From Promethearchaeota archaeon (lineage in GTDB: Archaea > Asgardarchaeota > Lokiarchaeia > Sigyniarchaeales > SOKP01), in assembly GCA_019058445.1 (NCBI GenBank), contig JAHPZA010000001.1:96001-160000 (forward strand): a DNA stretch of 64,000 nucleotides, read 5' to 3'. Positions 47,058 to 64,000 of the stretch are shown in pieces. Positions within the stretch are counted from its first letter, which is position 1. The number at the start of each line of letters is the position of its first letter. The position numbers and the translations under genes were made by a program. Below the pieces are notes generated by a model. That model ran no database searches, was not told where the DNA came from, and saw only the letters and a program-made list of their open reading frames with translations.

Positions 47058-49208
47058 ATGGAAACAAAAGATAATGGAAGGTTAAAAATGGTTTTTGTAG
47101 AACAAACGAGTGCACATAAAAAGAAAAGTAAATATCTAAAAAATTTATTACCTAGAGTGTTTAGAACGGAAGGGGATGTGGTTAAGTTTGATCCGTTAAA
47201 AATTGAAAATAGTATCATTAAAGAAACTGGTTTGGATAAAGAAAATGCTGATAGATTAACTGAAATCGTTGTGAGAAGGATCATATCATCAGGAATTCAA
47301 TTTCTCTCAGGACCCCATATTCGAGAAATAGTTTGCTCTGTTCTTTCAGAAGAACACTATGAGGACCAGAGAAAGTTATATACTCGAATTGGAATGCCTT
47401 TAATGGATTATGAAGCTATTTTAGACCAAGGCATAAATGAAAATGCTAATCAAGATATGAATCCTGAGAGTATCCATCACTGGGCTGCAAATCGAATCTC
47501 CGAAGAATATGCGCTTTTAAGGCTTTTAGATTCAGAAGAAGCTAAAGCTCATTTGTATGGTGATATCCATATCCATATGCTAAGATATTTCGATCTTCGT
47601 CCTTTCTGCCAGGAATGGGACCCTCGCATGATTCTCGAGCATGGTTTACCCCCTGTTGAAAGTTGGCCGCATTGTAGTAAATCGGCTCCTGCTGGAAGCT
47701 TGAGAGTGGCTGTAACTCATTTAGCAAAATGGTTAGGCATAATACAAGGGGAATTTTCAGGAGGACAAGGTTATGATTATATTACAACGTTTTTAGCTCC
47801 TTATGCGAGAGGAATTTCTGACAGGGAAATAGAACAATCAATGCAATGCTTAATTTTTGAAACTAACCAAATTTTTGCTGCAAGGGGTGGGCAAGTACCA
47901 TTTACTTCAATATCCTGTACTCCAACAGTACCAGAAGGGTTACTTGATATTTCAGCAATAGGACCTCATGGAAAAATAGTTGGATCTTATGGAGATTATA
48001 AAGATGAATGCCTACAGCTATTTGATGCATTAACGGATGTGTACATTAAAGGAGATCAAAATGGAAAACTTTTTGCTTTTCCAAAACATGAAATAAAAAT
48101 TAAAAAAGAATGGATAAATGATTTCGAACCGTCTTATTTGAAATTGATGGAAGAAGTGGCAACTATGGGTACTCCTTATTTCCTTAATATGTGTCCTGAC
48201 TGGATGCCTGATGAAATACATAGTCAATGTTGTAGAAAATTTCTCAGTGGAAATGAAATCATTAGTAAATGTATCCTTGATCCCGAAAAAAGAAAAGATG
48301 CAAATGTTTGGGAAAATTACGTGACTATTGGCTCTCTTCAAAGTGTAAGCTTAAATCTACCTAGATATGCCTATTTATCTCGAAATGAAGATGATTATTT
48401 GGAAATATTAGATGAAAAAATGGAATTATCTGCTAGAATTTTGATAAAAAAATGGAAGTTAATGGAAAAAAGATTACAATCAGGTCACCTCCCACTGTGC
48501 TGCGGAAAAATAAACGGAAAACCAATTTTTAATATAAACGATCAAAACCTCTCTATAGGTTTTACAGGATTAAATGAAGCCGTTAAAAGTTTAACTGGAG
48601 AAGAACTCCACGAAAGTAAAGATGCGTATAATTTGGGCAAAAAAATATTGGAATTCATGGTCGCAAAATGCAATACAATGACAGAAAGAGATGGATATTC
48701 ATATTCACTCTGGGAACAGCCCGCCGAGAGCAGTTCAGGACGCTTTGCTAAATTGGATTTGAAACATTTTCCTAAAAAAGCAATTCCTCAATCATCTGGT
48801 AAATCTGCTTATTACACAAATTCGGGTCATTTCAGATATGATGCTGATATTCCACTATCAGAAAGAATAAAAAAGCAAGGAGATTATCATCCAATCGTGA
48901 GTGGGGGTGTTATTACTCATATTTTTCTAGGAGAACAAAAACCAGACATAAATGGATTGTGGGAGCTTACAAAAAATATTTGTCTTAACACAAATACGGC
49001 ATATTTTGCATATTCTCCCGATTTTACATACTGTCCGCATTGTCGAAAGATGTTTCGAGGGGGAAGCTTTACCTGTTCTCAGTGTGGATCTCAGGACGCA
49101 AAAGTTTATTCGCGTATTACCGGATATTATAGTGAAGTTAATAGATATAATGCTGGAAAGAGAGCAGAATGGGAAACCCGAAAACGACAAAATATAGTTC
49201 ATATATAA
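47058..49208 (+). CDS. nrdD: anaerobic (class III) ribonucleoside-triphosphate reductase with ATP cone
   Basis: ATP cone, GDIHIH, SGGQG, SQCCR, PAES, YYTNS, CPHC..CSQC, glycyl-radical RITGYY. Confidence 0.95.
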   Translation: METKDNGRLKMVFVEQTSAHKKKSKYLKNLLPRVFRTEGDVVKFDPLKIENSIIKETGLDKENADRLTEIVVRRIISSGIQFLSGPHIREIVCSVLSEEHYEDQRKLYTRIGMPLMDYEAILDQGINENANQDMNPESIHHWAANRISEEYALLRLLDSEEAKAHLYGDIHIHMLRYFDLRPFCQEWDPRMILEHGLPPVESWPHCSKSAPAGSLRVAVTHLAKWLGIIQGEFSGGQGYDYITTFLAPYARGISDREIEQSMQCLIFETNQIFAARGGQVPFTSISCTPTVPEGLLDISAIGPHGKIVGSYGDYKDECLQLFDALTDVYIKGDQNGKLFAFPKHEIKIKKEWINDFEPSYLKLMEEVATMGTPYFLNMCPDWMPDEIHSQCCRKFLSGNEIISKCILDPEKRKDANVWENYVTIGSLQSVSLNLPRYAYLSRNEDDYLEILDEKMELSARILIKKWKLMEKRLQSGHLPLCCGKINGKPIFNINDQNLSIGFTGLNEAVKSLTGEELHESKDAYNLGKKILEFMVAKCNTMTERDGYSYSLWEQPAESSSGRFAKLDLKHFPKKAIPQSSGKSAYYTNSGHFRYDADIPLSERIKKQGDYHPIVSGGVITHIFLGEQKPDINGLWELTKNICLNTNTAYFAYSPDFTYCPHCRKMFRGGSFTCSQCGSQDAKVYSRITGYYSEVNRYNAGKRAEWETRKRQNIVHI

Positions 49209-49457
49209 ATAACAAAATTTTATGCACTCTATCAATTTAAAAATCATTATATTTGAAATATTTGCATCATTAGTGAGAGATTTACTCTAGTTATATAACT
49301 TGAATGAAGATATAAATCCGAAAAAATAATATCAAGCAAATAACGAAAGACATTTTGAGATATTCACTAATAAAATTAATGATGAATTTAGAAAATTATT
49401 TAAGAAACTAAGACCTATGAACATAGGACAAAAGATTAAAGATGAGTAGATTTTTCA

Positions 49458-52400
49458 ATGAAACAAACAGAAAGATCATATTTTTCTTATTCAACAAAAT
49501 TAAAAATTGCTGCATATTGTAATAATACTTGCGCTTTTCCTTCATGTGGTAAAAAAGTTCTTAGTGGGAGGATTAAGGCAGAAGATCTCGAAAATGGATT
49601 TTCTAAAGGTGAATTTGCTCATATAGTTGGTGTATCTCCTCAAGGACCTAGGCGATCTCAAGATGTGTCTCTAGAGAGCATTAATGATGTTTCAAATGGG
49701 ATACTACTATGTGCAGAACACCATGCATTAATAGATGCAAATCCTAATGATTATCCTATAGAAACCTTAAGAAAATGGAAAAGGAATATTGAAGATAATT
49801 ATAAAAATCTTCTGTTTATCAGTGATTATGATTCATGGGATGTTGACATAAATAATTTAATTAAAACTTCTGAATTTATTCAATATTCCGAAGAATTAAA
49901 TAAATTTTTAAATAGTTCTGAGAATCTAATTGTGCACGTAGACGGCGAAATAGGAGTCGGGAAAAAAACTTTTGTAAAATATTGCTTTTCTCAATTACCT
50001 AAAAATCTGCAGAACGAAGTTATTATAATACAATCTAATGATTTTGATCTCTCAAATTTCTCATTGTTTAATAAAATGATTAAATCAAGATTCCTTATTT
50101 TGCTTGAGACTTCTCCAAATTATCTTAAAAAATTAGTTGATAGAATTAAACAAGTTAATCCAACTAGTTATAAAGTCATTTCGATTGGTTCGGGTGAATT
50201 AGTAACTAAAAAAATAAATGGAATTATAAAAAAATATACTTTAAACCGTTTAGATTCGAAAAGTTCAAGGAAATTAATCAGCCAATTAAGCAAAATTATT
50301 TCTCAGAATAATATAAAATATATTTTGGATTTGACAAAAGGAAATCCAGGAATTATTGCATCATTGGTCAAATATAATGAAAGAAAATATGATTTCACAG
50401 ATGATTCCATAATTTCTGAAATTTTCGAGAATTTCAATGAAAGAATTAAAAAAATGGGGATAGAGTTAATTCTAGTTAAAAAAATTATATTAGGTTTCTC
50501 AATCTTCTCTGAATTAGGATGGTATAAAGGATTATATAAGACATTATTTGAGAAAGGAAAATGGAGTTATGAATTTGAAGAGATACCTAACAAATTTTCC
50601 AAGATAATAAATGTTGATCTAGACAAGATTGACATTATTATTACAGAATTACTTGAACTAAAAGTTTTAGAAAGAAAAGGGAGATTTTTAACTTTATCTT
50701 TACCATGTTTATCAGGTCTTTTCATTCGTCAGACACAGGAGGTATTTCTCAAGTATTTTAAGCGAATTATGGATTTACAAGATCCACATTTATTACAAAA
50801 ATTTTTAAAACGATTAAAACAGTTTGCTTATGAAGAAGTCCTAATTTCATCAATTGTTAAGGAAATTCTCGATACTGGGTTATTATCAACTATAGACTGC
50901 CTAAATATTAATTTTTTTTCTACAATCCTCTTAAATCTTGCACAGCTTAATAATAAACTAGTGGCTGACCATCTTGAATTATTATTCAAGCATAAAAATC
51001 CACTAGAATTAAAAGAAATTTTAATCAATCGAAGAAACTTAATAACAGCTCTTGAGCATCTGATATGGTATCCAGAAACATTTAAGACGGGAATGGATAT
51101 TTTAATTAAACTAAGCATAGGTGAAAATGAAGACTGGGCTAATAATGCAACAGGATTAATACCTGAAAAATTTAGAGTATATTTACCTGGAACGTCAGCA
51201 AGTTTAGATTTGAGATTGAATTATTTATCTGAGTTTATTGCTAATTCAACTGAAGAGCATTTTTTTTTGATTCCAATGATTTTCAAATCTATTTTCTATC
51301 TAAATACTAGTTCTAGATTGATATACGCTGAGATACAATCATTTAAGCCAATACCAAAAGAATTCGTACCAAATCCAAAAGAATTGTCAAAGTATTTAAA
51401 TGAAACTTTTAAAATTTTTAAAAATCAATTTGAAAATGAAAAATTTGAAAAAGATGGATTAGAAATCATAAATAATAATTTGAAACTTTTTGTAGAACTA
51501 AACAAGTTTGAAGAAATTAAATCAATATGGAATAAAATAATAAGTAAAGATAGAGATTTTAAAATCAGATTAATAAATTTTTTCGAATATCGATTCAAGA
51601 ATGATACAATCTATCCAGATATTAAAGAGTATATAAACAAATTAAAAGAAGATTTTTCCCTACTTGATTCAATTAAAGAGTTTTCTTGGAAAAGCCCATT
51701 AGATTTTAAAGAAGAAGATATGAAATCCAAATCTCTTGAAGTAAAAAAAGTATTATCTAGTTTAGAAAAGGAAGAAATTCAAGAGATTCTAGAATGGTTA
51801 ATGAAAAATTCTGGTGATTTTGTCATACAAATTGGAATTTTGTTATCATTGGACAAAGATTGGATTGATCAATATGAAGATGTATTAGAAAGCTTTCTAA
51901 AATTAAAGGAAAATAGGGAATTTGATTTCTTTCTTGCGGTCTCTTATAACATTAGAATTAAGGACCAAGAAAGGTGGAGATCTATATTAAAAAAAATTGA
52001 AGCAAATGAAGGACTTTCACATGATTACTTTAGATTGTTAAGAGCAACTCCAATTCTCGATGATTGGGTTGTAAATAAAATAGTTGATTTAGCTGAACAT
52101 GATTTCCTAAATGAAAGTGATTTATATCAATTTTCATGTTTAGAAAATGTAATTGAATTGGATGAAAACTTGTTTAAAAAAATAATGAGAATCTATTATA
52201 ATAGATTTCCTAATGTAATTTCTGTTAAGCCTCAACAATGGAATGATAATTTATTCTTAATAAAACGATATATTGAAAAAAATCCCAATTTTATCAAAAG
52301 AAATGTTGAAGATCTATTAAAAATTCTTTTAAATTTTGAGTGTCATGAAGTTGAGATTGGTGATAAATTTTCAAGCCTTTGGTTAGAAATTATTCTTATA

Positions 52401-53009
52401 ATTATTAAAGAATGTCCGGGAACAATTAAGGAAATAAGAAAAAAAATAATTAGTTTAATTCCTAGCAAATATTTACCAATGGATTTTGACAAAACAACTA
52501 TTAACACTCTATTTATCAATTTTTATGAAATAGAAGCAGAAGATACCTGGGAAGATTTTAAAATTTTATTTAAATCCAAATCAATTGATTATGTAGAGTT
52601 TTATTTCAACCTCTTATTTCTAAAATTAGTGCCTATCAATAAAATTTTAGAATTATGTGAGGAAAATGTAGAAAAAAATCCTTTAATTCTTGTTAAAATT
52701 GTAGGAGAGGATATCCAATCTCAAAAAGGTCAAGATCTTGTTCGTGAAATTTGGTATAACTACTCGAATATTAGCAATCTTTCTTTTGAAATATATTCTA
52801 ATTATACTTCTGGTGTCAAAATATTCTCACCTGGTGAAAGCGCTAAAATTCAAGAATTTCAATTAAAAAGACTTGAGGAGTGGCTTGAAAAAGAAAAAAA
52901 AATGGAAAAAACTAGAGAAAAAATGACGATATTAATAAATGAATTGAAAAGATTAATCTCGAGGGATGAAATACACGCAAAACAGAATGATGAAGAAACA
53001 AAAATTTAG
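49458..53009 (+). CDS. HNH nuclease + STAND-like NTPase + helical repeat protein (putative defence)
   Basis: CAFPSC..AHI..GPR..NGILLCAEHH..ID HNH; GEIGVGKK P-loop; GNP motif; long alpha-helical C-terminus. Confidence 0.75.
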   Translation: MKQTERSYFSYSTKLKIAAYCNNTCAFPSCGKKVLSGRIKAEDLENGFSKGEFAHIVGVSPQGPRRSQDVSLESINDVSNGILLCAEHHALIDANPNDYPIETLRKWKRNIEDNYKNLLFISDYDSWDVDINNLIKTSEFIQYSEELNKFLNSSENLIVHVDGEIGVGKKTFVKYCFSQLPKNLQNEVIIIQSNDFDLSNFSLFNKMIKSRFLILLETSPNYLKKLVDRIKQVNPTSYKVISIGSGELVTKKINGIIKKYTLNRLDSKSSRKLISQLSKIISQNNIKYILDLTKGNPGIIASLVKYNERKYDFTDDSIISEIFENFNERIKKMGIELILVKKIILGFSIFSELGWYKGLYKTLFEKGKWSYEFEEIPNKFSKIINVDLDKIDIIITELLELKVLERKGRFLTLSLPCLSGLFIRQTQEVFLKYFKRIMDLQDPHLLQKFLKRLKQFAYEEVLISSIVKEILDTGLLSTIDCLNINFFSTILLNLAQLNNKLVADHLELLFKHKNPLELKEILINRRNLITALEHLIWYPETFKTGMDILIKLSIGENEDWANNATGLIPEKFRVYLPGTSASLDLRLNYLSEFIANSTEEHFFLIPMIFKSIFYLNTSSRLIYAEIQSFKPIPKEFVPNPKELSKYLNETFKIFKNQFENEKFEKDGLEIINNNLKLFVELNKFEEIKSIWNKIISKDRDFKIRLINFFEYRFKNDTIYPDIKEYINKLKEDFSLLDSIKEFSWKSPLDFKEEDMKSKSLEVKKVLSSLEKEEIQEILEWLMKNSGDFVIQIGILLSLDKDWIDQYEDVLESFLKLKENREFDFFLAVSYNIRIKDQERWRSILKKIEANEGLSHDYFRLLRATPILDDWVVNKIVDLAEHDFLNESDLYQFSCLENVIELDENLFKKIMRIYYNRFPNVISVKPQQWNDNLFLIKRYIEKNPNFIKRNVEDLLKILLNFECHEVEIGDKFSSLWLEIILIIIKECPGTIKEIRKKIISLIPSKYLPMDFDKTTINTLFINFYEIEAEDTWEDFKILFKSKSIDYVEFYFNLLFLKLVPINKILELCEENVEKNPLILVKIVGEDIQSQKGQDLVREIWYNYSNISNLSFEIYSNYTSGVKIFSPGESAKIQEFQLKRLEEWLEKEKKMEKTREKMTILINELKRLISRDEIHAKQNDEETKI

Positions 53010-54261
53010 CGAATTGATTCCAAAATTCGATAATTGTTATATTCCTTTTAGATCAAACCTTGAAATTAAGATAGATCAAATTCATTTTAGAAAAAAAGGA
53101 CAAGATGAATGGTCATATTTTTCTAAATTATTCAGTTATGAAGATGATTATAATCATATAGTTGAAATTAATAACGAAATTGATGAAAATCTAATAATTA
53201 TCTACTATAAATCACTTGATCCTATAAAGTTTTCGTCAGAATTTGTCCAACTTCGAGTTATTATAAATAATGAGATTTATAGATGTATGTGCTCAATAGA
53301 ATGGATAAAAATTGAAGATGATTTACTTCCAAAGATCGTAATTAATTCAAATTTAGGATTTAAAAAGGAAAGAATTACCTGCCTATGTCTAAAATTAAAC
53401 GACAATTGTTTGAAATTCCTTAAACAATTTAACCAATTAATTGAAACTCAAAATATTACAGATTTGACTGATATTCGTGGAATTAATATTAAAAATTATG
53501 ATATCGCAATTGTAAATATCAAATTCTTAGATGATATAAATTTATACTTGAGATTTCTAAAGAATATTGGACAAATATACATCTCTGATGACATTGGAAA
53601 ATTATCAGAAAATTGTCTCAATATCAACAAACACAATTCATCTTATTCCTTTCATTATCGTATATCTGAATTTTTAAAAATAAAATGTTTAAACATTGAG
53701 AAAAATGATAAAGTCGATTTTTGGGAACAAAATAAAGATGAATCCGAGAGATTTTGGCAAAAATACTTACAAAAGCATACTGATATCTTTTCCTCTGCTC
53801 TAAACTATACTATGGAATTTATCTGTGATGAAGGATCTGTAAGAGGGCAAGATATATATGGAAAGGGAGAAAAAAGAATAGATTTTCTATATAAAGGAAA
53901 TGATAATAATGCTATTCTAATCGAAATAAAAGGACCAAAAACTCAATTAATTATGAATATGGAATATCGTGAAGGAATATATCCTCCCACAACTGATTTA
54001 TCAGCTTCAGTCCTTCAGGTAATGGATTATAAGAAAATACTAATCGAAAATTATAATGAAATTAAAAAAAGATGTGATTGTGATGGTTTAAAGACAGACA
54101 TCATTAAATGTTATGTTATAATTGGAAACTTAGAAGATTTAAAAGAGGAACAAGAAAAAAGTTTTTCTTATTTTAAAGAAGTCGTAAACCCATATGTGGA
54201 GATAATCACCTTTGATGATCTTTTTGATAAATATAAAAAAAGCTATTTAATGGTCATTTAA
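52966..54261 (+). CDS. sduA: Shedu (DUF4263) anti-phage nuclease with unknown N-terminal domain
   Basis: ESERFWQKYL, RIDFL, LIEIKGP.T.L..YR..DLSASVLQV.DYK, VIIG, VEIITFDDL. Confidence 0.82.
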   Translation: MKYTQNRMMKKQKFSELIPKFDNCYIPFRSNLEIKIDQIHFRKKGQDEWSYFSKLFSYEDDYNHIVEINNEIDENLIIIYYKSLDPIKFSSEFVQLRVIINNEIYRCMCSIEWIKIEDDLLPKIVINSNLGFKKERITCLCLKLNDNCLKFLKQFNQLIETQNITDLTDIRGINIKNYDIAIVNIKFLDDINLYLRFLKNIGQIYISDDIGKLSENCLNINKHNSSYSFHYRISEFLKIKCLNIEKNDKVDFWEQNKDESERFWQKYLQKHTDIFSSALNYTMEFICDEGSVRGQDIYGKGEKRIDFLYKGNDNNAILIEIKGPKTQLIMNMEYREGIYPPTTDLSASVLQVMDYKKILIENYNEIKKRCDCDGLKTDIIKCYVIIGNLEDLKEEQEKSFSYFKEVVNPYVEIITFDDLFDKYKKSYLMVI

Positions 54262-54323
54262 TTACAAATTATCTTTTTGGATTATGGAAAATATATAAAA
54301 ATGAGTTTGGAATACTTAAAAAT

Positions 54324-56222
54324 TTATTTATTGTCTTTTATGAAAGTTTGAAGATCTATAAAGAAATTGAAATTATCGCTTGTAATATTAGTTTTAAGTG
54401 TTTCTACTTCTTTATAAGTAACTGTCTCTGCTTCAGTATTATTTCTTTTCTTACAAACAAATTTCCCATCTTCCTGTTCTACAAGAATTGGTTCCCTTGT
54501 TTGCTTAATAGCAACAATCAAAATGATTTTTTCTATATCGAAATCATCTATCAATTTTATCTCTTTACATTTAATAAAATCCTTTTTTGGTTCTGTAAAT
54601 TTCCTTAATACTTTCTTAATTTGTTTAATTTTTTCCTCTAATCCATCAATTCCGACAATCTTTTTTGGATCATCATCTGTAATACCAATAATTAATAAGC
54701 CACCATCATAATTGGCAAAACTTGTTACTTGATTGCAGAATTTAATTTTAGCCCTCTTTTTTTCTGATTTGCTGGATTTTTCCCAAAAGTCAAGTGTTTG
54801 CTTAAAGTCCCATAAATCATTTTCAATGCGGTTAGGTTCTATAGCTTTTTTTATAAAAAGAATTAAAGCTTCTTCATTATATAAAAAGGTTTGTTGCAGT
54901 CTATATTTGTTAATATCTAAATCTAATTCTTCATAAATTTCTTCAAAATCTTCTTCAAGAATTTTGTTCACAATGGATTTAGTGTTTTCTTTTTGAATTA
55001 AATATACAGAGCATTCCTCTTCATTTTCGTATAAAAATTCTCTAGAATGCGTAGTTATAAAAATCTGATTAGATTTTGATTCTTGAAGGAATTTATCCCT
55101 TAACTTAATTTCTAATCCAGGATGTAAATGAAGCCCAGGTTCTTCTATACATAGTATATTATCTTGCCCAATTTCCATGATATAAGCAATAAAGTGTGCT
55201 ATGTTAAGTATACCAGCACCCATATTGTCCAAATTCAATTCTATGTTTAAATCATTTTCTTTTAAAATTAATATAGTATAATCATTTTCGATCACTTCTT
55301 GCCTTAGTATATCAATTTCAGGAATAAATTCTAATAATTGCTTATTAAGTTTTGAGTTCCAATCATGTTCATTGGTAACCAATTTCTTATATATTATAGT
55401 AACTAAATTACTTCCTACCGGATCCAGACTTAAGCGAGTGGCCCCTGAGGTCTCAGCCCTTGGATTAAATCTACGTTTATCTGGAATAATATGGATATTT
55501 TCAAAAAATTTAATTAATTCTTTAGCTATAAATGGAATAGGGGGATAATTTTCAAGATTCAAATGTTCTTCTAAAATTTGTTTTATATATCGAATTCCAC
55601 CAGTTCTTATATTTGCAAAATAATTTTTTAGAAATACTCTATCAATTGAAACATTTTGTTTTTGAATAGCTTTAGGATTATATACTGAGTTTTGAAAATT
55701 ATCATTATCAAGTCTTTTAAAATGGAACAAATCTTGATAGTTATTATCCATATGTAAAATTTGAATTCTTTCAATATATAAAGCCTTTCCAATATCGTAC
55801 TTTTTCAAAAAAATTTTAATTTTATTGAAATATTCATTTGATTTAAGCCAGTCTAAAGCGACTTTTGTGTCATTCCAATTAAATTCTTGAAATTTTGGAT
55901 CATTTTTCCTTGTATAATCAAAAACTCTATTTAAAAAATTTCGAGTGATAAGTTCCAATATAATTTTATTTCTAAACTCTGATGTTAGGGAAAAAATTAG
56001 ATTAAGTTCTAATGGTAGTGTTTCGTCTCCATCATAATATTGTTCTCTATTTACTTTTCTTTCTGAATAAGAATCTTGGAGTATCTTAAATATTTTAAAT
56101 AAATTTGATTTACCTGAACTATTTTTTCCTATTATAACATTGTAATCTTTAAAATCCTCAAATTTAGCATCTTTATAACTCAAGAAATTTTTGATTTCTA
56201 TTCCTGAAAGCTTAATATTCAA
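54324..56222 (-). CDS. OLD/PrrC-type ABC ATPase fused to C-terminal Schlafen (AlbA_2) domain
   Basis: GKNSSGKSN, MGAG, IEEPGLHLHP, ITTHS; WDFK..SFANYDGGLLIIGITDD..IVGI. Confidence 0.82.
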   Translation of the reverse strand: MNIKLSGIEIKNFLSYKDAKFEDFKDYNVIIGKNSSGKSNLFKIFKILQDSYSERKVNREQYYDGDETLPLELNLIFSLTSEFRNKIILELITRNFLNRVFDYTRKNDPKFQEFNWNDTKVALDWLKSNEYFNKIKIFLKKYDIGKALYIERIQILHMDNNYQDLFHFKRLDNDNFQNSVYNPKAIQKQNVSIDRVFLKNYFANIRTGGIRYIKQILEEHLNLENYPPIPFIAKELIKFFENIHIIPDKRRFNPRAETSGATRLSLDPVGSNLVTIIYKKLVTNEHDWNSKLNKQLLEFIPEIDILRQEVIENDYTILILKENDLNIELNLDNMGAGILNIAHFIAYIMEIGQDNILCIEEPGLHLHPGLEIKLRDKFLQESKSNQIFITTHSREFLYENEEECSVYLIQKENTKSIVNKILEEDFEEIYEELDLDINKYRLQQTFLYNEEALILFIKKAIEPNRIENDLWDFKQTLDFWEKSSKSEKKRAKIKFCNQVTSFANYDGGLLIIGITDDDPKKIVGIDGLEEKIKQIKKVLRKFTEPKKDFIKCKEIKLIDDFDIEKIILIVAIKQTREPILVEQEDGKFVCKKRNNTEAETVTYKEVETLKTNITSDNFNFFIDLQTFIKDNK

Positions 56223-56648
56223 ATCTCCTTTCCCCCTTAATAATGATTTAAGACTCTTCTGATATTCTTTAGCAAAATATAATATTTATTCTCTTTGGTA
56301 AATTAGAAATTATAGAATAATAATTTAATAATATTAATTAAAAAGTAAAAATAAAGAGAGTCTAATTATTTTTTACAATTCATTAAACACAATTTTACAA
56401 ATTTTGAAGCAGATCTTCATTCTTTTAAATCTTAATATAATTCTAAATTATTGAATTCAATATTTTCGTATATACTAGAACTATAATTTCAATTTTTATC
56501 AATACTCATGTATAGTAATCCTTAAGGTTAGTATTTAATTATGAATATAAATATAAAGCTATCAAATAGTTATAGATTACTAGTATATATTTAAATTCAC
56601 TTAATTACAAATAATTTTATATATTAATACATAAAAAAAGATTTTTTA

Positions 56649-58190
56649 ATGATAAAAATGAACGAGGCAAGCGTTATTGTACCAAAAAGTGAAATTAGTG
56701 ACGATTTCTTAATTAAGAATTACTGTAAGCTCATTAAAAAAGGGGAGATTGAATTTCTAGAGAAAATGGATAGTTTTGACATATATGATAAGAATTATGA
56801 AGAATTAAAGGATGAGTCTAACTATATAAAAATTGATACTAAGAATCTTGTTAATATTTTAAATGATCTCACTATAGAAGATAAAAAAGAAGAAGAAAAA
56901 GTAAAGATTCTGAAAAAGAAAAAAATAATATTTCAGAAACTATGGCCGAATTTTGTAAGGAGTGCTATTAAATATCTAAGAATAAAAGATACTCGAGATA
57001 AAGGTACCTTTAAATTTGATTTTGGAGTCAACAATTTAACAAAATATTTTGAAGAATTCTCAAAATTTGAAGAAATTCTTTATGGAATTGACGAATACTA
57101 TCGAGATCATTCCCTACATGTTTTTAGAGTGTATCTTTTAGGAGTATATTTAGTAAGAAAATTTTTTAAAGATTATGATCAATTGAAGATTAAAAATAAA
57201 CCTTCTATAATCGGTAAAATCTTTTCTGATGAAAAAGAAGCGATTTGGTGCGTTATAGCATTATGTCATGATTTAGGATATCCATTACAGAAATTAGATG
57301 AATTAAATAAAAAACTTGTTAAAATACTCGAATTTTTTGGTACTTCAAATTTTAATCCTTTAAGATTTAGCTTACCTCTTGAAGGAACAATCTTAGACAA
57401 ATTTATTTTAAAATTAATTTCGTCAAGAATCAATGACAACTTATTGATTCAACATCAACCTAAATTTTATGCAAAATACTCTAAGGCTTATGAAAAATTG
57501 AGCCATGGAATAATGTCTTGTATCTTATTAATGAAAAATTTAGTATATTTTAAAGAAACAGATTATGAACCTGATTTCCAAAAAGGTTTTAAATATATTA
57601 AAGAGCCTTCTACAAATAGCAACGATTTTGATGAAAGAACTTTAGAGGATGCAAGACAATATGTAATTAGAAGAGAAATACTACGATCAATTGCTTCCCA
57701 TGATAACGAAGATATTTATCATATAGAAATGAATAATTTTCCCTTTTTATTGATAATGTGTGATGAAATCCAGGAATGGAGCCGACCTGCTTCAAAAATA
57801 AGACTACTATATGCCTTAGATGAAAAAAATAGAGAGATAATTAATATCAATGCTTTTAATGAAAATATAATAGATATCTTAATAAATTTAAATTTTGATG
57901 AAAATGATTTATTAAATTATGTTGCAAAGAAATATATGAAATTTATTCGATTATTGAGAAGTGCTGTAGATTCAGATAAACGGAAATTTAATTTTATAAT
58001 GTCGATACAAAATAGGGAAGGCATAAAATACCAGTTTATTTATGAAAGTCCTAATGAATTCTATACTGATGAAGAAAAGAAAAAAATGGAAATCTCGTAT
58101 GAAGAACCAAAATGTATAAAATTTATAAATGAAAAACCAATAGAAGATTTCTCATTAAGGAATATTATTGATTTAATAAATAAAAAATGA
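56649..58190 (+). CDS. HD-domain metal-dependent phosphohydrolase
   Basis: RDHSLH, CHDLGYP, HG..S, SHD, LIMCDEIQEW.R. Confidence 0.78.
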   Translation: MIKMNEASVIVPKSEISDDFLIKNYCKLIKKGEIEFLEKMDSFDIYDKNYEELKDESNYIKIDTKNLVNILNDLTIEDKKEEEKVKILKKKKIIFQKLWPNFVRSAIKYLRIKDTRDKGTFKFDFGVNNLTKYFEEFSKFEEILYGIDEYYRDHSLHVFRVYLLGVYLVRKFFKDYDQLKIKNKPSIIGKIFSDEKEAIWCVIALCHDLGYPLQKLDELNKKLVKILEFFGTSNFNPLRFSLPLEGTILDKFILKLISSRINDNLLIQHQPKFYAKYSKAYEKLSHGIMSCILLMKNLVYFKETDYEPDFQKGFKYIKEPSTNSNDFDERTLEDARQYVIRREILRSIASHDNEDIYHIEMNNFPFLLIMCDEIQEWSRPASKIRLLYALDEKNREIININAFNENIIDILINLNFDENDLLNYVAKKYMKFIRLLRSAVDSDKRKFNFIMSIQNREGIKYQFIYESPNEFYTDEEKKKMEISYEEPKCIKFINEKPIEDFSLRNIIDLINKK

Positions 58191-58750
58191 CAGTAAATGA
58201 TTATACTGATATAAAAACTATTGAAATTAAGAAAAGGGATTTAATATTTTCTAAAAAAACTCGTTTGTGGTGTAGATTACCATATCCAAATCATCCTTAT
58301 GGATGTCCAAATTATAATAAAAATCCATTATGTCCCCCTTTTGCCGATTACATGGATTATATTAAAAAAAAATATTCTCATTTTTATTTAATTTATGCTA
58401 TTTTTAAATTAAAAAGTCAAAGAGAAAGAATGCTTTCAATCCATCCAAATTGGTCAATAAAAAAAGCTAATTGTTTGTTATATTGGCAGGGTTCTGTAAA
58501 AAAAGTCTTAAAAAACTATATTCAAAGGATTATACTAAAAAATAAAAATAGAAAAACCTATATTTTAGCATGTGGTTCTGGATTTAAATTTAGTAGTATT
58601 CATCAAAATAAAGTCTATAGTATGGAAGCTGTAGGAATAAATGTATTAAAAACTTTAGATAATGTGGGAATAGAATACGAACTTAAACCTAAGAATAAAG
58701 TATTACTAGTTACACTATTATGTTCTCAAGAGTACCTTTTATTTTTTTAA
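58187..58750 (+). CDS. DUF2284-like Cys-rich metal-binding protein
   Basis: C..GCPNY..CPP, SMEAVGINV..T. Confidence 0.75.
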   Translation: MTVNDYTDIKTIEIKKRDLIFSKKTRLWCRLPYPNHPYGCPNYNKNPLCPPFADYMDYIKKKYSHFYLIYAIFKLKSQRERMLSIHPNWSIKKANCLLYWQGSVKKVLKNYIQRIILKNKNRKTYILACGSGFKFSSIHQNKVYSMEAVGINVLKTLDNVGIEYELKPKNKVLLVTLLCSQEYLLFF

Positions 58751-59771
58751 ATTCTTCAGGTATATAATCTTTAGTTAAATCTATTTGTTTAATGTTATTG
58801 CATACTAATTTTTGAATTGGACAAATTTCATTACATATTTTTCTTTCTAAACAATATCCACATTTTAGATTTTCTTTAAAATGCTGTAATTCTATATCTA
58901 ATAACCTATTAGAAATAACTTTTCGAAGCGAATTTTTATCATTCAGTTTCACGAAGCAATTTGAAATATTTTTAAAAGCAGTACAAGGAAATAATTTAAG
59001 ATCAGATGTAATCATAAATTTATTTTTTCCAGCTTCACACTTAAAACAAGAATTACTAAGGTTAGAAAATGCCGATCCTATTTCGACTTTAGAGGAAGGA
59101 TAATTTAATTTCACATTATTTAAAATGATAGCTAGATCTTCTTTGCTAAATACTAATTTCTCATGATTTTTTAAAGCCCTACCATGTAATATAAGGCGAA
59201 GTATCTTGACATGTTTAATATTTAGCTCATTTATTAAATATTCTATTGTATCTTCAAGGTATTTAATATTTAAACAATTAGGGATGATATGAACTTCAGT
59301 ATTGATATTTAAATCTATACATGATTTAATTGAAGTTATAGTATTTTCAAAACCAAATGTGGTTTTTGTTAATTTAGCAAAATTTTCTTTATCAATGGTT
59401 TGAAAATTATATCTTATTGTCAAATTAGGATGATTTTTATATCTCATTAAGATATTTTTAGGAATAGGCAAATACTCCCTATCTTTATAAATACATCCAC
59501 AAGAGTAAATTTCCAGCAAAAAATCACAATTTAGAATATAATCAATAAATTCTATAATGTTTGGATGAAGAAATGGTTCTCCTCCTGATAATTGGATAAT
59601 ATCAAGACCAAGTTTTTTAGCATCTTGAATAAGTTCGATAAATTTCTTTTTTTCTATATATTTCTTCTTATAGATGGTTGAATCACTAGAACAAAAAATA
59701 CAATTAAAAGGACATTTGTTAGTTATTTCAATCAACAATTCTTTTTTCTTTTTCAATTTTGCTTTCCTCAA
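58710..59771 (-). CDS. radical SAM/SPASM-domain protein
   Basis: EITNKCPFNCIFC, SGGEPFLHP, CEAG..PC..CGYC..ICNEICP. Confidence 0.88.
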   Translation of the reverse strand: MRKAKLKKKKELLIEITNKCPFNCIFCSSDSTIYKKKYIEKKKFIELIQDAKKLGLDIIQLSGGEPFLHPNIIEFIDYILNCDFLLEIYSCGCIYKDREYLPIPKNILMRYKNHPNLTIRYNFQTIDKENFAKLTKTTFGFENTITSIKSCIDLNINTEVHIIPNCLNIKYLEDTIEYLINELNIKHVKILRLILHGRALKNHEKLVFSKEDLAIILNNVKLNYPSSKVEIGSAFSNLSNSCFKCEAGKNKFMITSDLKLFPCTAFKNISNCFVKLNDKNSLRKVISNRLLDIELQHFKENLKCGYCLERKICNEICPIQKLVCNNIKQIDLTKDYIPEEFKKIKGTLENIIV

Positions 59772-60065
59772 CGATTCAATTCTAATATTGACTTAGATAC
59801 TTTTAATCTTTTTCTATATAAAAAAATAAAAATATCTTGGTTTTTTCTCATCATCTCCTAAACTTGTTTAACTCTATATTATGCTTAAATATTAGAAATA
59901 TTTTAAATCTTTTAGCTTTTCTCATTTAAAATATATTTCTTAAAAATATTTAAAATTATTGGCAATGAAATTATTCGAAATTTAATAAAATCTCATTTAA
60001 TTAATAAGATTTTGATTTCAATTTAACTTATAATAAAAAAATAGATTTAACCGACAAATTTATAT

Positions 60066-60093
60066 TATTCTCTTTTCTTAAGAATTGAGAATA
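60066..60093. promoter_or_regulatory. 28-bp imperfect palindrome, candidate operator
   Basis: TATTCTC-TT-TTCTT|AAGAA-TT-GAGAATA just upstream of the wHTH gene. Confidence 0.45.
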
Positions 60094-60127
60094 TTTAAAA
60101 ATGCTTGTTTATAATTTAATTATGTAG

Positions 60128-60454
60128 ATGATTGCCCTTGAAAAAGAGATAATTATTATAAATTTTTTAAATGAGAAAGCTATAAATTTATTATATATTC
60201 TAGCTAAAAAATATCCAATAACTAGCGTTAATTTGAGGAATAAGGTTATTAAAAATGAAATAATGTCTATAAGTTCTTACTATAGGTATCTGGATTTCCT
60301 TTTGAAACATAAACTGATAAAAAAAGAAAAATATAGAAAGAAGACAGGGGGTTATATTTATAATATAAGTAATTTTGGTAAGTATTTCCTAGAATTAATT
60401 TTAAAATCAAACATTCCTTTTTATAATAATCTAAATCATGATCTAAACTCATAA
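60128..60454 (+). CDS. winged-helix DNA-binding protein
   Basis: SSYYRYLDFLLKHKLIKK..GYIYNISNFGK. Confidence 0.7.
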   Translation: MIALEKEIIIINFLNEKAINLLYILAKKYPITSVNLRNKVIKNEIMSISSYYRYLDFLLKHKLIKKEKYRKKTGGYIYNISNFGKYFLELILKSNIPFYNNLNHDLNS

Positions 60455-60499
60455 ACTTATAGAATAGCGGATTTTTATTTAAAAAATTTAAAGTGTTTA

Positions 60500-60940
60500 A
60501 TTCCTCAATCTTCTGATAATTAGGCTTACTATACAAATTCAAGTTATTTCAGATATGATGCTGAGATTTTACATTCAGAAAGGATTAAAAAACAAGGAGA
60601 TTACCATTCTATTATAAGTGGTTGAGTAATTATTCATAAAAGCTTAGGCGAGCAAAAATCAGACATACAAGGATTATGAGAATTAACTAAAAATATTTGC
60701 CATAATAATAACACAGCATATTATGCCTACACTACAGATTTCACTTATCACCCTTATTGAAGAAGAATCTTTCGAGGGGACAGTTTTACCTTTTAAGAAT
60801 GTGGTGCTCAAGATGCCAGAATTTACTCCAGAATTACTGGCTATTATAATGAAGTAAATAAATATAATGAGGGAAATAGAGCAGGATGGGAAGCCTGTAA
60901 AAGAGATTATATCAACGTATTACAGAGATTAAAAAAATAA
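60500..60940 (+). pseudogene. nrdD: decayed copy of nrdD 3' end (Zn-ribbon + glycyl-radical domain)
   Basis: One frame reads IPQSSDN*AYYTNSSYFRYDAE..ERIKKQGDYH..YSRITGYY..W with 5 internal stops; colinear with 48783-49208. Confidence 0.92.
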
Positions 60941-60959
60941 GAATCATATATTTTCTTCT

Positions 60960-63164
60960 CTAATTTTTAATATAGATTTGTCCTATTCCTGATGTAAAGA
61001 TTTCATAGAATGGAACTGTTAAATCATAAATATTATTATTTTCATTATTAAATTCTATAGATTTTACTTTAGTGAAAGTATTTTTAGCAAATTTCATCCA
61101 TAACTTCTCAACAACAGGAGTATTATATTTCTTTTTTATAAGAAAACTCAATGTATCTAATAATTTTCCTTCAGATATATTCATTGTACTATTCTTTTGA
61201 GCACATCTCGCTGCGATATATGGAATTTTTCCTTTTTCAGATAACATTCTAAGAGATATAGCATAATTCTCTTTTAATTCTACATTCATTTTTTTCATCC
61301 ATGGATTTAAATCGATGACTGGTTCTATATCCCTCCCAAAATGTCCAATTTCTGGAATAGATGGAATAAACTTCCTTAATATAGATAGATTTCTTTTTCC
61401 TTTTATTTCTAAATGATAAGCATTATACCAACTAGGATGTTCTACATTATCAAATTCTCGTTTCCTAATATAAGATGAAATCCCTAAGCGTTTTAATAAA
61501 AAACTCAAACCAAAAACTAATTTGCGTGAAGATGTGTAAAAACTCACTAAAACATCTCTTCGTGGTGAGCCTTCACGTGTATATACTACTTCAGATCCGT
61601 CTCCTTCTAAATAAGCAGCGATAAAACCTTTCACACATTCAATGGGAGCATTATATAGAAATGAAGGAATTTCCTTAAACGGTGCTTTTTCAAGTTTTAA
61701 TCCTAATCCCGTTGAAAACATAGATTTAATTAGAATGGAATTACTATTGACGCTATATACAGTGTTATAATCCGCTTTATCATGTGTAGCAATATAAGGT
61801 GTATATCCAAAATTCCTTTCTATAAGAAATGCTACTTTTTCCATCTCAGTTTTATTATTTCCACAAGTGAACGTAATATGTTTCATAGAACCTTCGGAGC
61901 AGTAATGCCCTAAGATATATCCAACCTCGAAATTTTTCTCAACAAATCTAAAGGCTTTTGTTAATGCATTTTTAACATACTCAATGCCTTTCTCCACAAT
62001 AATTTCTCCACAATTACTAAAGTCTAAGGGGGAATCGTCTTCATTAACATCGATGACTCGAGGCATTAGAATTGGAGTTCCTTCTTTAACGTTTTCTGCT
62101 GTAATTTGGATTATATTAAGATTTTCATCAACAGAAAGTAGCTTATGTTGTTTTGATAACGATAATATCCCATGCTTCAATGTTAAATTTAATGAAAAAT
62201 CTCTATACTTTTTTTTAATTCCTTCAATGGGGATTTTTTTTAATTCAAAATTCTCGTCCAATCCAAAGATATAAGAGTTTTTATAATTTTCTATTTCTTT
62301 AATTTCTATTAGATTATATGAATTTGTATTTAAATCGAACAATAGAACGAGCTCGTTTTGCTGCATTTTAGAAAAAAGATTCTCTTCAATGGGGGTTCGT
62401 TCCTTCTCATACACATCATTAATTCGCTGAAGTTTATCTTCTTGGATAATTTCTTCATCAAAGAATACTTGATTATTTATTTCTTTTTCTTTAATATTCA
62501 CACTCGTTTCTAATCCAAAAAATTGGATTAAATCTTTTCGAATTACTTTTTCGAGGTTAAATAATCCCTCCTCAGTATCAATTTGACTCATTATTTTAAA
62601 TATTATTTCTATTATCCAACACAAGTAGACAAAAAAAGCCTTGCGGTATTTCTTGTTTTTTTTAATTTTCCTTTGGTATATTTTTAGTTCTGAGAGGAAT
62701 CCACTGTAGTTAGCATTTTCGAGATATTTCAAAATATTTAATATTGGTTTTTTAGTTATAATTGGAGTCAAATGAGCTTCAATTCTTTTAATTAGTTCAA
62801 TGGTTAGTTCCATTTGTGAAATCGGCGTGTTTACTTCTCTCTCAAATTTTTTTAATTTAACATAACTCATTCGAGCAATAAATAGAAGATAAGTATCCTT
62901 AAATCGTTGTGAAAATTCTGGATCGTAAATAATAAGCTCTAAGGCACTATTCAACTTATCATTATTATTTTTTTTATAAATTAATTGAACTTTATCAATA
63001 GTTTCAATCGAATAATTCTTAAAGTCAATTTTTTTGCCACATTCTGAGCAGAATATGAATTTTAAATCAATATTAGCAATATTTAAAATTGTATTCACTG
63101 TAATTAACATGCCACATTCTGGACAGTAAATATGTGTTTGTTTAAGTTTGTCTTTGCTTTTCAT
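60960..63164 (-). CDS. Zn-ribbon/helical N-domain fused to terminal intein-derived Hint + LAGLIDADG endonuclease
   Basis: CPEC..CSEC; block B SKQH, block C LGHYCSEGS, block E FIAAYLEGDG, block H, block F IYDLTV, ends IYIKN-stop. Confidence 0.85.
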   Translation of the reverse strand: MKSKDKLKQTHIYCPECGMLITVNTILNIANIDLKFIFCSECGKKIDFKNYSIETIDKVQLIYKKNNNDKLNSALELIIYDPEFSQRFKDTYLLFIARMSYVKLKKFEREVNTPISQMELTIELIKRIEAHLTPIITKKPILNILKYLENANYSGFLSELKIYQRKIKKNKKYRKAFFVYLCWIIEIIFKIMSQIDTEEGLFNLEKVIRKDLIQFFGLETSVNIKEKEINNQVFFDEEIIQEDKLQRINDVYEKERTPIEENLFSKMQQNELVLLFDLNTNSYNLIEIKEIENYKNSYIFGLDENFELKKIPIEGIKKKYRDFSLNLTLKHGILSLSKQHKLLSVDENLNIIQITAENVKEGTPILMPRVIDVNEDDSPLDFSNCGEIIVEKGIEYVKNALTKAFRFVEKNFEVGYILGHYCSEGSMKHITFTCGNNKTEMEKVAFLIERNFGYTPYIATHDKADYNTVYSVNSNSILIKSMFSTGLGLKLEKAPFKEIPSFLYNAPIECVKGFIAAYLEGDGSEVVYTREGSPRRDVLVSFYTSSRKLVFGLSFLLKRLGISSYIRKREFDNVEHPSWYNAYHLEIKGKRNLSILRKFIPSIPEIGHFGRDIEPVIDLNPWMKKMNVELKENYAISLRMLSEKGKIPYIAARCAQKNSTMNISEGKLLDTLSFLIKKKYNTPVVEKLWMKFAKNTFTKVKSIEFNNENNNIYDLTVPFYEIFTSGIGQIYIKN

Positions 63165-63339
63165 ACTAATGAAATAAATTACTTATATTTAAAACAAAAA
63201 AAAGTTTTAAAATTGATTTCAATATGAGATAAAGCACGTTGGTATTAATAAAAAATTCAGAGAGTCATCAAATTTTTAGAGTTATATTTGCTCCCTAATA
63301 TAAAGATTTAATTGAATCTGTAACACTTTTGATGATATA

Positions 63340-64000
63340 ATGCGAATTGGCGGAATAATTGATATTTCTACAAAAGATATTCCAAATAAAGCATGCATGG
63401 TTATCTTTACTAATGGGTGTAATTTTAATTGCGAATTTTGTCATAACAAACATTTATTACAAAATAATCGCGGTAAAATTATAAAAGTAGAAGAGTTAAT
63501 GAAACTAATAAATAATAACCTACTAGTTAATAGTTTAAGTATCACAGGGGGCGAACCGACGCTTCAGGAGGATTTAGTAGAGTTATGTAGAGAAATCACT
63601 AAGTTAGGGAAATATCTAAGTATAGATACTAACGGTTCTAGACCTGAAATCATTCAAAAAGTTATTCCATATATTAATAGAATTGCTTTAGATATAAAAG
63701 CACCGTTAAAGCAACATCAATTAGAGAGAGTTGCTAGAAAAAGTATAGACCCTACGTTAATTACTCAGACATTTCTTATGCTAAATACCAGTAAGACTAT
63801 TGATTTTGAAATTAGGACCACTTATGCTGAAAACTTATTGACACCAGGGGATATTCATGAGATAATTTTCTTTCTTAAGGAGCATAATTTTAGAGGCAAT
63901 TATGTCTTACAACAATATAACTATTCTGAGGGGGTGGGTAAAGAGTTTAGAAATAAGTTTCATAAGCCGTCGCATCTTTCTTTAGTCAATATTCTTGGTT
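63340..64000 (+). CDS. nrdG: anaerobic RNR activating protein (partial, runs off window)
   Basis: MRIGGIIDISTKD..FTNGCNFNCEFCHN, ITGGEPT, DTNG, DIKAP, EIRTT. Confidence 0.9.
   Translation, partial: MRIGGIIDISTKDIPNKACMVIFTNGCNFNCEFCHNKHLLQNNRGKIIKVEELMKLINNNLLVNSLSITGGEPTLQEDLVELCREITKLGKYLSIDTNGSRPEIIQKVIPYINRIALDIKAPLKQHQLERVARKSIDPTLITQTFLMLNTSKTIDFEIRTTYAENLLTPGDIHEIIFFLKEHNFRGNYVLQQYNYSEGVGKEFRNKFHKPSHLSLVNILG

Follow-up and report, generated by a model that had tools for sequence, protein, structure and literature searches.

A recombinase-free block of mostly defence-type genes between two copies of the nrdD end in a Promethearchaeota genome, and its probable origin by import from related Lokiarchaea

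In Escherichia coli, partial lacZ duplications of 109-950 bp are formed in conjugation by the single crossover of a re-circularised fragment (PMC3240628). For the T6SS clusters of Vibrio cholerae, one-sided HFIR with sequential displacement has been proposed to account for stacked 3' remnants (PMC5361080), and Rhs C-terminal displacement is cited there. Prophage e14, integrated in E. coli icd, encodes intE and xisE, has a fixed att core and is accompanied by the pseudogene icdC (NC_000913.3). The class of mechanism discussed here is already known from bacteria; what is new is the serial reuse of nrdD tails across a family, direct evidence for 3'-end replacement in two relatives, and a putative endonuclease linked to nrdD. 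A term search of two papers on Asgard genome dynamics (PMC11529989, PMC13247210) gave no mention of gene-end scars.

The window (the whole stretch of DNA analysed, 64,000 nucleotides; C1:96001-160000) belongs to a 4.6-Mb metagenome-assembled Promethearchaeota genome of Lokiarchaeia type with a contamination of 4.3%. Its nrdD gene (47058..49208, + strand) encodes a class III ribonucleotide reductase of 716 aa (TIGR02487 above cut-off, PF13597), in which the ATP cone, the Zn-site cysteines and the RITGY glycyl-radical loop are all intact. The initial annotation had noticed that the last ~140 codons recur 11.7 kb downstream with stops but in an unbroken frame, and this is confirmed: the copy in use (48782..49195, +; codons 576-713) aligns without gaps over 414 bp with positions 60499-60912 of a 3' remnant (60499..60940, +; the frame closes at 60938-60940), with 74.2% identity and an offset of 11,717 bp. 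The remnant carries five in-frame stops (60521, 60623, 60677, 60758, 60794) and no frameshift, and has lost three of the four Zn-site cysteines. The abrupt onset of homology is also as described earlier, with the identical 12-mer AATTCCTCAATC at exactly 48782 and 60499 and only 22% likeness in the 90 bp before it, and the differing serine-arginine codons (TCG CGT vs TCC AGA) are located at 49110 and 60827.

Downstream of the remnant lies the nrdG activase gene (63340..64000, +, continuing to 64086; TIGR02495 above cut-off), with a MazG-like gene next to it, so that nrdD and nrdG are 14.1 kb apart. In the sister species of the same genus (G003) this gap is 41 bp and in G007 the two genes are likewise adjacent, which makes the arrangement in this genome an insertion and supplies, by synteny, the empty locus that had been asked for. 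The earlier statement that the island separates nrdD from nrdG stands as far as the empty site is concerned, but the last 2.4 kb of the distance, occupied by an ORF with intein/LAGLIDADG domains, lie outside the repeat. A comparison on the origin of nrdG met only a partial copy (55%) in G008. A candidate for a decayed nrdG start behind the stop of the active nrdD was rejected, as 513 of 1000 shuffles scored equally well.

The cargo between the copies (49209..60498, 11.3 kb) has a GC content of 24.7%, against 31.9% upstream, and domain and profile searches of its seven ORFs found no recombinase or transposase domain, in agreement with the previous remark that the island has no integrase. Judged by domain matches, the cargo appears to consist mostly of anti-virus genes, with three ORFs recognisably of defence type. 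The first ORF (49458..53009, +) encodes a protein of 1183 aa with an N-terminal HNH nuclease and a P-loop region (PF13391; PADLOC HNH effector matches), which is probably a STAND-like defence protein, its nSTAND-like atlas neighbours being a lead; it has one relative (35%) among 134 family genomes, and the search for a donor of this gene gave only that homologue, with no nrdD in its retrieved flank. It is followed by a Shedu (SduA) nuclease (52966..54261, +; PF14082, E 1.6e-23; PADLOC SduA, E 1e-39), an ABC/AAA ATPase fused to a Schlafen/AlbA_2 domain (54324..56222, -; Pfam and PADLOC), a protein of 513 aa without a Pfam match for which atlas features give HD/HD-CE as a lead (56649..58190, +), a DUF2284 metal-binding protein (58187..58750, +; Pfam), a radical SAM protein that is not of NrdG type (58710..59771, -; Pfam, family score), and an ORF of 108 aa with a weak DUF4364 match (60128..60454, +), which ends 44 bp before the remnant. 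The three genes from 56649 to 59771 (HD-like, DUF2284, radical SAM) are also present as a block in G061 (L260:3200-6320), away from nrdD, so the cargo is a patchwork.

About 105 family genomes with this nrdD were surveyed, and in most of the family the MazG-like gene stands directly behind nrdD. At least seven relatives have nrdD remnants: in G088 and G100 (two each), G072, G093 and G080 they precede the MazG-like gene, and G008 and G128 have them as well, while partial matches in G129 (L073), G007 and G147 were left out of the count (split gene or contig edge) and the search for short remnants in 11 other gaps downstream of nrdD gave only chance AT-rich matches. The remnants in relatives start at about codons 563, 572, 621, 630, 640, 646, 648, 658 and 678, and all of them run to the stop region; the starts are spread over about 115 codons, with three of them, including codon 576 in this genome, clustered at 563-576. 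Tails are stacked in some relatives, and the cargo is different each time. In the active nrdD of G088, identity to its kin amounts to 92-95% over codons 320-439 but 68-71% over codons 640-679, and its first remnant reaches 86-90%. Two contigs of G111 are identical over 96 bases and part ways in a fork at codon 556, one leading into an allele that is linked to cargo and jumps clade, the other into an allele with the MazG-like gene directly behind it, although a repeat or the presence of two strains may account for the fork. We take these as foreign active tails seen in the alignments of G088 and G111. Allele switches lie inside the nrdD tails of G088 and G008, with a mixed signal in this genome. 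At the joint of cargo and second remnant in G100 there is a 7-nt microhomology (GTAGAAA), which could be the original illegitimate joint or the product of later trimming.

Some further arrangements were noticed at nrdD. In G072 (L078:6132-11589), the stretch from the nrdD remnant to the MazG-like gene contains CBASS-like genes (SMODS, Cap17-like) and a gene with a TniQ domain. Although the nrdD site of G128 itself is empty, another of its contigs (C66, L081:9871-10146) bears an nrdD tail of 93% identity, behind which come the gene of an ATPase of 2025 aa and an HNH-like gene; this tail is either an ectopic copy or from a second strain. The nrdD of G129 (L073:2644-10354) is split between codon 184 and about codon 592 by some 6.8 kb, and codon 184 is the intein insertion point in L044, L053, L059 and L091. 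A paralogue of about 605 aa, which ends before the Zn-site and the glycyl-radical loop, is encoded elsewhere in the present genome (G000 C3:120459-122258; L030), and in G005 such a short paralogue occupies the nrdD locus itself. In L063:12072-14598 the MazG-like gene is present twice behind nrdD, with a distance of 2.2 kb from copy to copy.

The geometry is not confined to nrdD. For 3,780 ORFs of this genome, segments of 120 bp from the start, the middle and the end were compared with non-coding DNA within 35 kb. Copies of 3' ends on the same strand were found downstream for 43 genes and upstream for 8, and copies of 5' ends upstream for 25 and downstream for 12, with 4 mid-gene cases (Fisher p 1.3e-6). 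After removal of paralogues and tandem repeats 34 and 13 were left, about 30 of them clear scars. The scars are 50-720 bp long and 65-97% identical, bracket 0.2-29 kb of cargo and mostly have pS above pN (pooled 0.54 vs 0.20); the genes include leuS, adk, an EF-2-like gene, DedA, a creatininase-like gene and an MBL gene. The leuS, DedA, Lrp-like and crotonase-like genes have empty sites in relatives, and all four sites continue as remnant plus downstream flank, that is, no host DNA was deleted. Where the scars of this genome have decayed least, it is more often the remnant than the active end that relatives match. No junction motif shared among the scars is visible. A short identical target duplication at the remnant starts was considered and discarded, since similarity at the starts is on average lower than in the remainder (0.73 vs 0.80); the scars of G008 and of the EF-2-like gene begin with 31-34 identical bases. 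Scar density is roughly 10 per Mb here, compared with icdC alone, the one real case and a positive control, in 0.78 Mb of E. coli; among the other controls, all small samples, 400 kb of a single-contig family member gave 3 matches, and 400 kb of a complete genome of another family gave no 3' scar and one 5'-type match.

We also noticed a 29-kb block between 721-bp, 96-97% identical 3' ends of the EF-2-like gene (G000 C10:652105-682716; L105, L106), the youngest large scar. At G000 C5:110967-115533 (L097) 2 kb of cargo are flanked by two copies of the 327-bp junction at which two convergent genes meet, so that both 3' ends are repeated together. The sister species too has an adk 3' remnant behind adk (G003 L162:494-567).

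The scar at nrdD is probably the result of an integrase-free import of a gene tail together with its cargo from related Lokiarchaea. DNA of a related Lokiarchaeon, comprising an nrdD tail and the genes behind it, would recombine into the resident nrdD via the tail alone, either as a re-circularised fragment that enters by one crossover inside the tail, or by pairing on one side and illegitimate joining on the other (HFIR-like); the two routes are taken as one class because the data do not separate them. In either case the gene would stay intact and be followed by the cargo and by a second tail that lacks a promoter, starts at the break of the fragment and subsequently decays, and repeated events would stack tails and cargo. 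At nrdD, the LAGLIDADG gene was probably first to arrive, behind one tail, and the defence block would have been placed before that tail later. We infer this route, the order of events and the way in which donor DNA enters the cell. The pattern agrees with a single crossover in that the duplication is direct and partial, has a variable length and comes with no host deletion. A donor allele in the restored gene, as in HFIR, is seen in G088 and G111 and is favoured at the least decayed scars here, but is not shown for this nrdD.

Several observations count against the import reading. Classic HFIR usually deletes host DNA instead of duplicating it (PMC3240628). Three of the remnant starts cluster, and later microhomology deletions could have made part of the spread. 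ComEC (PF03772) is absent from all ten genomes of the genus, and DprA (PF02481) is present in two of the ten, this genome not among them. The complete genome of the other family has no 3' scar in the small sample scanned. No excision or circle joint occurs among those listed from the contigs of four runs, contigs being a form of data that drops rare forms, and no donor molecule was seen.

The ORF outside the repeat (60960..63164, -) suggests a different explanation. It encodes a free-standing protein of 734 aa with a Zn-ribbon N-terminus and an intein-derived Hint/LAGLIDADG module, which ends at the stop codon with no C-extein, and both LAGLIDADG motifs look intact. Of its three closest homologues in 154 genomes (51-53%; L079:4644-6068, L090:13234-14634, L076:3-1568), those in G072 and G019 face nrdD tail-to-tail and the one in G100 immediately precedes a remnant, so that each of the four close homologues, that of the window included, is located at a tail or a remnant of nrdD. 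They belong to two genera, their N-termini are variable and a C-extein is absent. A gene tied to one locus in this way is what is expected of a free-standing homing endonuclease, and the protein may be one aimed at nrdD. In that case it would cut nrdD near codons 556-576, one end of the break would copy the donor tail and cargo, and the other end would be joined illegitimately and turn into the remnant. The starts at 563, 572 and 576 and the fork of G111 at 556 do cluster there. Nevertheless, we find homing unlikely as the origin of the scar, since the LAGLIDADG gene lies outside the repeat in this genome, most nrdD remnants of relatives and nearly all other scars here have no adjoining LAGLIDADG gene, and a fifth, more distant homologue is located elsewhere; such a putative enzyme may account for the start cluster but not for the other scars. 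A 36% homologue in G072 adjoins a nadC-like gene (L271).

The initial annotation had read the locus as an integrative element at an att site within nrdD. Site-specific integration of the e14/icd type, with the 12-mer as core, an integrase acting in trans or since lost, and remnants of relatives trimmed later, is in our assessment very unlikely. The geometry is that of icd-e14-icdC, with the target gene restored, the displaced 3' end at the far border and an empty site in relatives; moreover, 12 identical bases open the repeat, the starts cluster at codons 563-576, and the genome encodes two tyrosine recombinases (both on other contigs, neither inside a scar; no serine resolvase was found). However, the cargo has no recombinase of its own and a fixed crossover core is missing. 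The 12-mer is present at four further places in the genome and is shorter than the longest identical run within the repeat (19 bp, at 48829). The starts are spread over ~115 codons, with 3' ends that reach the stop region, though later trimming could explain a part of this, and young, uneroded scars begin at different codons, 621 in G008 (100% over the first 30 bp) and 646 in G128. The patchwork nature of the cargo, with its three-gene block in G061 away from nrdD, is also not in favour of an element. With variable starts and the same scar at about 30 unrelated genes, dozens in all sharing the geometry with no common core or junction, the att-site reading is not supported.

Returning to integrase-free import, the question is which of the two copies is foreign. 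They differ with pS 0.64 and pN 0.15 (dN/dS 0.116, dS about 1.4), while among the 157 first and second codon positions at which 37 active copies show no variation the remnant is changed at just 20, which corresponds to about 13% neutral decay, a level that the five stops fit. As dN/dS is 0.12 and dS is tenfold the measured decay, we are dealing with different alleles and not with a decayed duplicate, and the earlier view that they diverged under selection before one of them decayed is borne out. It is hence highly improbable that the end of nrdD was duplicated within the genome and then decayed neutrally, with cargo added separately: the active tail does group with those species that are closest to its own 5' part, but the dS equals between-species distances, a sister grouping of the two copies is rejected (AU test, p 0.041), and the second copy would have to have been functional for long, which is unlikely for a promoterless tail of 138 codons. 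A tree built from codons 576-711 places both copies inside the clade of the genus. There the active tail is joined to G002 (98/94), which for the 5' part is likewise one of the two nearest relatives, and the remnant sits on a long branch beside G008 (89/82), a more distant species; a topology constrained to keep the remnant with G002 and G003 is rejected as well (p 0.016). The proposed foreign C-terminus of the active gene, and with it a chimeric enzyme, is thus not shown in this genome. Of the counter-scenario that had been named, an active tail clustering with its own 5' part is found, but the remnant is no neutrally decayed duplicate. The active tail may have come from a donor of the same genus, the foreign piece may instead be the remnant, or the remnant may derive from an earlier import; after integration of a circle, either copy can look foreign, depending on the position of the crossover. 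Windows and informative sites gave a mixed signal for the crossover in this nrdD, which cannot be placed because the relatives (82-89% identical) are too distant.

Misassembly or a bin chimera, also raised initially, has a vanishingly small probability even for a metagenome-assembled genome with 4.3% contamination, as a separately assembled Logan contig of the probable source run (same reads) covers 47831-64000 and so spans both copies with 0 differences and a flat depth of 27.6, core and cargo pieces were found again at 99% in three other samples, and a repeat of 74% identity would not collapse during assembly.

The single nrdD locus is ordinary in mechanism; it is the scale and the serial reuse of the tail across the family that matter. 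If integrase-free import is general, Asgard archaea would gain defence and accessory genes without enzymes of mobile elements, the ends of housekeeping genes would be mosaics, with relevance to marker phylogenies, and the scars would be datable records of DNA exchange between uncultured relatives. A stronger proposal, which we regard as doubtful, is that the family has a dedicated and hitherto undescribed capture of genes via gene ends, for example by host-encoded circularisation of incoming DNA or by intein-derived free-standing endonucleases that open conserved genes, nrdD among them, and that this is its main route to accessory genes and not a by-product of ordinary recombination.

Among the described systems, the single crossover of E. 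coli (PMC3240628) shares with the scars here the partial duplication of a gene end, a length that varies (109-950 bp in E. coli, 50-720 bp in this genome), the cargo in between and the independence of an integrase. It is a rare laboratory event with identical homology, whereas the scars here are natural, join alleles of 65-97% identity, are serial and affect dozens of archaeal genes, with no circle observed. The T6SS arrays of V. cholerae (PMC5361080) are alike in the conserved anchor, the new 3' end with cargo, the old end pushed downstream, the stacking and the lack of an integrase, and the microhomology at one joint in G100 may be a further likeness to HFIR; on the other hand, the targets here are housekeeping or ordinary genes and not polymorphic toxins, no host deletion is present at the scars checked, and the competence genes ComEC and DprA were not found in this genome. 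With e14 in icd (NC_000913.3) the locus has in common a restored gene, cargo and a displaced 3' end as a pseudogene, but the cargo comes without intE, xisE or a fixed att core. Phage T4 mobE (PMC2790892) is likewise an endonuclease gene beside a ribonucleotide-reductase gene and in principle able to co-convert flanks; it is, however, of HNH type, with two-sided repair and no remnant, while the gene here encodes a putative endonuclease, an intein-derived LAGLIDADG protein in a cellular genome.
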